Below, one piece after another: positions 22,175 through 23,091 of a stretch of 64,000 bases of DNA. Origin of the DNA: Octopus vulgaris. Lineage: Eukaryota. Position 1 is the first letter of the stretch; each line of letters begins with the position of its first letter. Below the pieces are notes generated by a model. The model did not search any database, was not told the DNA's origin, and saw nothing but the letters and a program-made list of their open reading frames with translations. The stretch spans positions 76,756,001 to 76,820,000 of the forward strand of contig OX597819.1 of NCBI GenBank assembly GCA_951406725.2. The letters are read 5' to 3'. The translations under genes and the position numbers were made by a program.

Positions 22175-23091
22175 ATAATAATAAGGGTAAATAATTTCTA
22201 TAATGGTTTTTAAAAAAAGACCACAATTATTTACTGGTAGAATTCGGTATGTAAATATAGCCGATTACCGGCAGGAACTTCTGTAAAGTTCAGTATATAT
22301 ATTGTATATAAGAAAAAGGGACAGGCAACAGGTTGCTTGACCGCATACCGAAAAAAGTAGAAATAGCAGTCAAAAATGCTTATTTCTAATTTCCACAAAT
22401 GGGGCTCCAGGCACGACAAACCCTGTAATTCACATATGCAAAACAGAAGGAATAGATATTCGAAAACGAAGTCTGGTGGTTATCTGTGAACATCATGTTT
22501 CTGGATTATAAACATATTGAATATATATTTCATATATACTTTTGATATATATTTCATATATATTGCATATATATTTCACATCCTTCTTCAGCACAGCTTT
22601 CCATTGAAATAGATTTATCATAGATTTATCAAATGCTACGTACCTCAAACCTTCTGACCATGCGACATCAAAATATTTGAAGAAAGCGAGCAAAGGCTAA
22701 ACCTACATAGACGTTTGAATTCATAAATCTTCCCTCCAAAATTTTGCCATGCGCACTACAAAAATAGTTCCATAGGAGTAGGAACTATTGGGTTGTCGTA
22801 AGGGAGTGAAAAATCCAATTAGTAATATAATAATAAGGGTAAATAATTTCTATAATGGTTTTTAAAAAAAGACCACAATTATTTACTGGTAGAATTCGGT
22901 ATGTAAATATAGCCGATTACCGGCAGGAACTTCTGTAAAGTTCAGTATATATATTGTATATAAGAAAAAGGGACAGGCAACAGGTTGCTTGACCGCATAC
23001 CGAAAAAAGTAGAAATAGCAGTCAAAAATGCTTATTTCTAATTTCCACAAATGGGGCTCCAGGCACGACAAACCCTGTAATTCACATATGC
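22175..23091 (-). mobile_element. 652 bp-period HHR-bearing unit (1.4 copies), retrozyme/PLE pseudo-LTR-like
   Basis: 22175-22439 is repeated at 22827-23091 (offset 652); one HHR per unit; (TA)n on both flanks. Confidence 0.75.
22484..22596 (-). ncRNA. Type I hammerhead with long AU-rich stem II
   Basis: CUGUG-CUGAAGA-AGGAU...AUCCA-GAAA-CAUGAUG-UU-CACAG; 5 bp stem I, intact core. Confidence 0.75.

Follow-up and report, generated by a model that had tools for sequence, protein, structure and literature searches.

The locus described here probably holds a retrozyme-like, non-autonomous unit of 652 nt for whose mobilisation a Penelope-like element (PLE) of the Hydra clade, or a related one that targets TA, supplied the reverse transcriptase (RT) and the endonuclease. 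We favour this reading because an identical 265-bp redundancy at a period of 652, the lack of an ORF, a ribozyme of Hydra layout, insertion into (TA)n and a local Hydra-like PLE all occur together. The 917-bp insertion into (TA)n reads as a product of target-primed reverse transcription. The class of element is known; what is new is a modest variant of the ribozyme, with a very long arm, and an informative 5′ junction. Coordinates (Table 1) are those of the window, by which we mean the whole 64,000-nucleotide stretch of Octopus vulgaris DNA that was analysed (contig OX597819.1, positions 76,756,001 to 76,820,000).

Table 1. Features of the insertion and its flanks, in window coordinates.
Feature	Position	Strand	Description
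(TA)n target tract	22016..22171	.	156 bp, at the element's 3′ end; putative primer for reverse transcription
3′ junction	22170..22186	-	five TAA; in the internal copy, three TAA that follow TAA-TA
Full 652-bp unit	22175..22826	-	non-coding, 32.8% GC
Redundant segment, 3′-terminal copy	22175..22439	-	mostly local hairpins; without the ribozyme
Rod, 3′ arm	22405..22474	-	long, irregular; extends stem I
Uncopied continuation past 23091	22441..22452	+	10/12 bases match the right flank at 23095-23106
Type I hammerhead (predicted)	22484..22596	-	stem I 22596-22592/22488-22484; core 22591-22585 and 22501-22498; 83 nt between core strands
Hammerhead stem III	22498-22490	-	palindromic, 9 nt; U17 at 22489
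Stem II region	22502..22584	-	83 nt, 17% GC; A-A mismatch, 4 bp, internal loop, three stacked AU helices
Rod, 5′ arm	22709..22806	-	end 20 nt from the unit seam 22826/22827
Redundant segment, 5′ copy (pseudo-LTR-like)	22827..23091	-	identical to 22175-22439
Right flank	23092..23114	+	23-nt inverted copy of the tail of the adjoining repeat; outside the unit
(TA)n tract	23115..23194	.	between the two inverted arms
Dispersed repeat, presumably SINE-like	23193..23337	-	inverted arm derived from its tail; approximate right boundary

The insertion, its size and its age

The two redundant segments agree at 265 of 265 bases with a spacing of 652, so that the direct repeat that the first-pass annotation had judged identical is indeed so at that period, and the insertion is therefore 917 bp long, or 1.41 units. 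Slippage of TAA leaves the left edge of the repeat uncertain by about 5 nt (22170-22175). Self-BLAST found no further copy of the unit in the 64-kb window. The absence of coding capacity, also claimed in that annotation, was confirmed, the longest stop-free frames in the unit being 82 codons on the minus strand and 56 on the plus strand. An RT-endonuclease ORF, that is, a single frame with an RT and, at its C-terminus, a GIY-YIG domain, is absent from the element, and tblastn of the window's PLE ORF against it gave four weak matches, the best at E 0.024, on the AT-rich stem II. Searches found no match to the element in phage genomes and no tRNA genes. The description of the unit as larger than typical is correct when it is set against the 170-400 nt reported for metazoan retrozymes (PMC7229834) but not against retrozyme families of 51-972 bp, with an average of 650 bp in ray-finned fish (bioRxiv 10.64898/2026.07.22.740005); since 652 nt falls in the latter range, the size is unexceptional.

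The absence of differences over 265 sites places the divergence of the two copies below about 1.1% (rule of three), barring homogenisation or collapse of the copies in the assembly, and with that proviso supports the earlier suggestion of a recent insertion. If the octopus rate implied by a distance of 0.09 at 25 My (PMC13282606) is applicable, the insertion is therefore under about 1.6 My old. Complete identity is also the expected result of an assembly effect, in which a longer tandem array (of 2.4, 3.4 or more units) was collapsed to 1.41 units or a false duplication was introduced, and PLE tandems are noted as difficult to assemble (PMC8557442). A collapsed array would contain several ribozymes and could make circles. 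We consider such an effect improbable because the window contains no N, the 156-bp TA tract is resolved, as long reads would be expected to give, and the two copies have different junction contexts. Still less credible is a duplication of 265 bp at the DNA level after an ordinary single insertion: tandem slippage does not make an A-B-A order in which the element's 3′ end is precisely where the repeat begins, and this order has the pattern of the standard PLE pseudo-LTR (PMC8557442), even though a microsatellite and a palindrome are unstable flanks that would lend themselves to such an event.

The hammerhead ribozyme

The hammerhead has a stem I of 5 bp and is predicted to cut between 22489 and 22488 on the minus strand. 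The first-pass annotation had reported an intact core for this motif, which is true of both conserved core strands; the qualification is an A-A pair at the base of stem II and a U at position 17. A 131-nt fragment folds as a three-way junction with z -3.95, and none of 200 shuffles was equally stable. In the 917-nt transcript, pair probabilities are 0.72-0.79 for stem I and 0.89-1.0 for the four stem II pairs, while those of stem III are lower (0.44-0.67, with a rival A14-U17 pair at 0.48). As a monomer, stem III is marginal (0.44-0.72, with the rival pair at about 0.5). A Hydra-type descriptor, tuned after the motif was seen, matches the ribozyme and gave no matches in 200 shuffled 64-kb windows. 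Rfam reported no hammerhead in the whole window at E <= 0.1, where the 120 matches were all to miRNA or snoRNA models and below gathering scores, and none in the element region at E <= 10, where there were four chance matches. A register with a short stem II that uses an internal GAAA was tried and rejected, its stem I being weak and the long register dominating the ensemble.

At the base of stem II, U-U is reported to be the mismatch with the highest activity (PMC3088659), so that weak activity is likely for a ribozyme with A-A at this place. This A-A copy may be impaired, and its ribozyme probably cuts weakly, and best as a dimer. There is one ribozyme in the copy, which therefore cannot itself release a monomer or a 652-nt circle by double cleavage.

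The AU-rich stem II of about 80 nt that had been pointed out earlier is real, at the length and composition given in Table 1, but it is not peculiar to this element, as two other ribozymes of the window have stem II regions of 60 and 74 nt. A hammerhead scan of the window returned seven rows, one of them an alternative register of the ribozyme in the unit, which leaves six credible motifs; a stem II of 60-83 nt is present in three of the six, at 22484-22596 (83 nt), 21412-21514 (74 nt, with core G8 changed) and 50345-50433 (60 nt). The extension in the unit is an 11-nt AT-rich repeat in 5.1 copies (22521-22578), which forms the three stacked helices, and the long stem II is a local repeat expansion past the canonical 4 bp, presumably a tolerated one. 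Half-cores 35-50 nt apart have been described in eight Naiads, two of them cephalopod (PMC8557442). Our literature search, mainly of open-access sources and mostly at entry level, found no account of a 60-80-nt stem II in PLE hammerheads and none of cephalopod retrozymes, and the O. vulgaris repeat paper (PMC13282606) contains no occurrence of 'ribozyme' or 'hammerhead'. Because long-stem-II hammerheads recur here and escape Rfam, the numbers of ribozymes and retrozymes in this lineage may have been underestimated.

Several other features were noted in the window. A non-coding 363-nt unit, probably the 'first' permuted unit of the first-pass annotation, occurs at 47424-48176 as two head-to-head copies, one of 1.12 units, each with a hammerhead (47655-47698, minus; 47960-48003, plus) in which core U4 is changed to C; a 55-nt tail distinguishes the 3′ ends of the copies, each of which terminates in (TA)n. 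A relative of this unit at about 74% (47160-47362, plus) stops at stem I of a degenerate short hammerhead and has a near-identical 3′ end. A fragment at 21357-21703 (minus), about 345 bp long and flanked by TA, carries a decayed hammerhead, and comparing it with the 652-bp unit detected no homology (z 2.1). A type I hammerhead with a short stem II lies directly after a (TA)n tract at 17315-17359 (plus). The remaining observations are a large fold-back or MITE-like inverted repeat at 31092-31565, whose long arms are near-perfect; a tandem array of 184-bp period at 33364-34032, related to a repeat dispersed at many sites of the window; and two fragments that score below the curated Pfam cut-offs, a decayed DDE transposase (DDE_3, E 0.002; 53649-54098, minus) and an integrase (rve, E 0.006; 41405-41890, plus).

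Resemblance to Hydra-clade PLEs and the fold of the unit

For comparison we used the 26 Hydra-clade ribozyme rows of File S2 of PMC8557442, counted by eye and with one element entered twice. The stem III region is 9 nt long in 20 of these rows and the base of stem II is mismatched in 15 (14 U-U, one U-C and no A-A). U17 is found in 10, the octopus element included, and we therefore rejected it as a sign of decay. Loop 2 measures 3-10 nt in all 26 rows and 73 nt in the 652-bp unit; two plant PLE rows of the same source have 29 and 35 nt. The features shared with Hydra-clade PLEs, Hydra-1_Obim among them, are accordingly the (TA)n target, for which Hydra PLEs have a published preference, a ribozyme near the 3′ end, the partial tandem form, the 9-nt palindromic stem III, a mismatched stem II base and U17 (PMC8557442). 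The unit is unlike them in lacking an RT/endonuclease ORF and in its 73-nt loop 2 and A-A mismatch. A by-eye comparison of the unit with the 3′ end of the published Hydra-1_Obim consensus revealed no similarity.

The window also contains a 5′-truncated Hydra-like PLE (50190-52958, minus) that has a 416-codon frame with an Asn-rich insert and ends in (TA)n. Its ORF (51708-52958) carries a CxCX5C linker, a GIY-YIG-like segment and a CxxC, and is followed by a 3′ region of about 1.3 kb, with the 60-nt-stem-II hammerhead about 1.3 kb downstream of the ORF. A Neptune-like label for this ORF was considered and rejected in favour of Hydra, since CxCX5C is present and CX2-5CxxC absent. The Hydra label is thus a putative one by motif fit only; the ORF has no Pfam match, and a homologue search among 109 candidates yielded none. 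The 652-bp unit has no detectable homology to the 3′ region of this PLE (z 1.7, with 5 of 60 shuffles as good), and 20 comparisons among five ribozyme-bearing elements from the window detected no mutual homology (best z 2.1).

When folded as a circle, the 652-nt unit is 64% paired, with z -5.9 for the ribozyme strand and -3.5 for the other strand (12 shuffles each), and the circular z is still -5.0 after the stem II extension is removed (12 shuffles). The layout is that of a ribozyme, a rod and a hairpin pole. The rod consists of ten helices in which 22806-22709 pairs with 22405-22474, and the duplex of its arms, at -55.7 kcal/mol, was matched by none of 300 shuffles. This fold plan recurs in the 363-nt unit at 47.4-48.2 kb (z -7.2), whereas the last 652 nt of the window's Hydra-like PLE show no such fold (z -1.3). 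Strong folding is not unique to the unit, as 7 of 57 unrelated 400-nt windows reach z <= -4; this control scored 59 of 113 windows, two of which were the element itself, at six shuffles each. Nor is the rod proof of a circle, because it can form in linear RNA too.

These comparisons bear on an alternative that we regard as doubtful but worth weighing, namely that a longer, autonomous PLE of Hydra type contributed two 5′-truncated 3′ ends, of 652 and 265 bp, to the insertion. These would have been joined when the RT began anew on a second RNA, at the initiation site that it had used before, and the 652 period would be an accident of truncation. PLE insertions are heavily 5′-truncated and partial tandems, with their pseudo-LTR pattern, are an ordinary and frequent form of PLE insertion (PMC8557442). 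The ribozyme layout and the 314 nt from the cut site to the 3′ end fit the 3′ ends of Hydra elements (about 35-350 nt, PMC8557442), and only 230 nt lie upstream of the ribozyme, which could be untranslated, given the local Hydra-like PLE with its 1.3 kb. The seam sequence is compatible with either reading. On the other hand, this account requires a template jump, no more than 20 nt separate the outer end of the rod from the seam, structure runs through the entire unit, which sets it apart from the 3′ region of the window's PLE, and the neighbouring 363-nt element is evidence that this genome does contain short units that are non-coding. Published partial tandems of PLEs have a period equal to the full unit (PMC8557442). 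We therefore continue with the reading of a 652-nt non-autonomous unit.

The junctions and a proposed mechanism of insertion

The first-pass annotation had described (TA)n on both flanks. This is correct for the left flank, where (TA)n adjoins directly, but on the right the 23-nt inverted arm comes first: the element's 5′ end meets it bluntly, and (TA)n and then the parent tail follow. The parent belongs to the dispersed repeat that we take to be SINE-like, and related tails occur at 9916, 14416, 15364 and 28395. Because both arms share a variant that is missing from these four tails, the inverted arm was copied locally; three bases that are absent from the parent are retained in it. The 3 nt by which it differs from its parent also argue against its being a fold-back copy made within a read, a further point against the assembly effect considered above.

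The ends of the element do not coincide with the cleavage site, as had been noted before; the 5′ end (23091) is 49 nt short of the equivalent site of the next period. A 10/12 match between the uncopied continuation and the flank is found at the true junction only (in a post hoc test, 4 of 652 positions, each of them inside the allowed slack of 3 nt), and when DNA duplex energy is the measure, a second site, 22672-22682, equals the junction patch (17 of 652 positions). The sequence of this patch suggests homology-guided second-strand priming, and the 5′ end would lie off the cut site because it was there that the bottom strand of the flank paired with the cDNA and served as primer for the second strand. 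Such priming does not discriminate between a circular and a linear template. The 49-nt gap was considered as a sign of a ribozyme-cut linear template and rejected as a discriminator, since both models need the same coincidence of about 7%, the best pairing patch being there. The 3′ junction appears to fit priming on a short TA microhomology with slippage.

We envisage the following course of events. Transcription of the ribozyme strand at a master locus elsewhere would give an RNA longer than one unit, and the template would be a linear multimer or, with about the same probability in our view, a circle formed by ribozyme cleavage and ligation. The PLE endonuclease would nick the (TA)n tract, and the TA end would prime in the UA/UUA-rich loop of the RNA, stuttering of the primer adding the two extra TAA units that are seen at the junction. 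Reverse transcription would then traverse the ribozyme, still uncut, and continue over about 1.4 units, as the structure of the copy indicates. Finally, the other target strand would pair with the cDNA over the imperfect 12-bp patch and prime the second strand, which would fix the 5′ end at 23091. More-than-unit copying from circles has been proposed before (PMC4209133, PMC7229834). In an anole PLE, ribozyme cleavage proved dispensable in vitro and none of the RNA reads had its end at the cut site (PMC11167929), which argues against a required circle.

A single element is a minor addition to a known class. However, it is a very young insertion with both junctions readable and so constrains how PLEs finish integration, a stage that, together with the choice of circular or linear template, is described as open (bioRxiv 10.64898/2026.07.22.740005, PMC11167929, PMC8557442). 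A broader hypothesis, which we think unlikely to hold as a whole, is that the Hydra-type PLEs and non-coding satellites here carry a freely expanding stem II of 60-83 nt that is missed by Rfam and by short-loop descriptors and hides a large family of circular RNAs of about 650 nt, and that the 5′ junction is a footprint of PLE second-strand priming. If true, that priming would have proceeded by imperfect pairing of target strand and cDNA.

Comparison with other known systems

Plant LTR retrozymes (PMC7761336) have a similar scale of 600-1000 nt and likewise have a non-coding middle part between direct repeats that are a few hundred bases long. Their ribozyme is of type III and lies inside each LTR, whereas that of the octopus unit is of type I and lies outside the repeat, and they are flanked by a 4-bp target duplication, a feature that is unreadable at this element because its target is (TA)n. 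The resemblance is superficial. Non-autonomous Chlamys PLEs such as MRC1 (PMC8557442) are closer in being non-coding PLE derivatives with pseudo-LTRs and head-to-tail insertions. They differ in being algal, in having a 3′ end that generally resembles an autonomous family and in that most Chlamys are without a canonical hammerhead.

The metazoan non-LTR retrozymes (PMC7229834; bioRxiv 10.64898/2026.07.22.740005) are also non-coding, with a type I hammerhead and a GC content below 50%, and share with the unit a highly self-paired predicted circle in which the ribozyme is free to fold, as well as the proposed mobilisation by PLEs through more-than-unit cDNA. One difference lies in the ribozyme, which in the unit is of PLE type with a 73-nt loop 2 and in the retrozymes has a canonical, short loop. 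An active retrozyme is defined by at least two consecutive units, each with a ribozyme (bioRxiv 10.64898/2026.07.22.740005). Because it has 1.41 units and one ribozyme, the octopus element falls outside this definition; it can be a retrozyme offspring copy rather than an active array.
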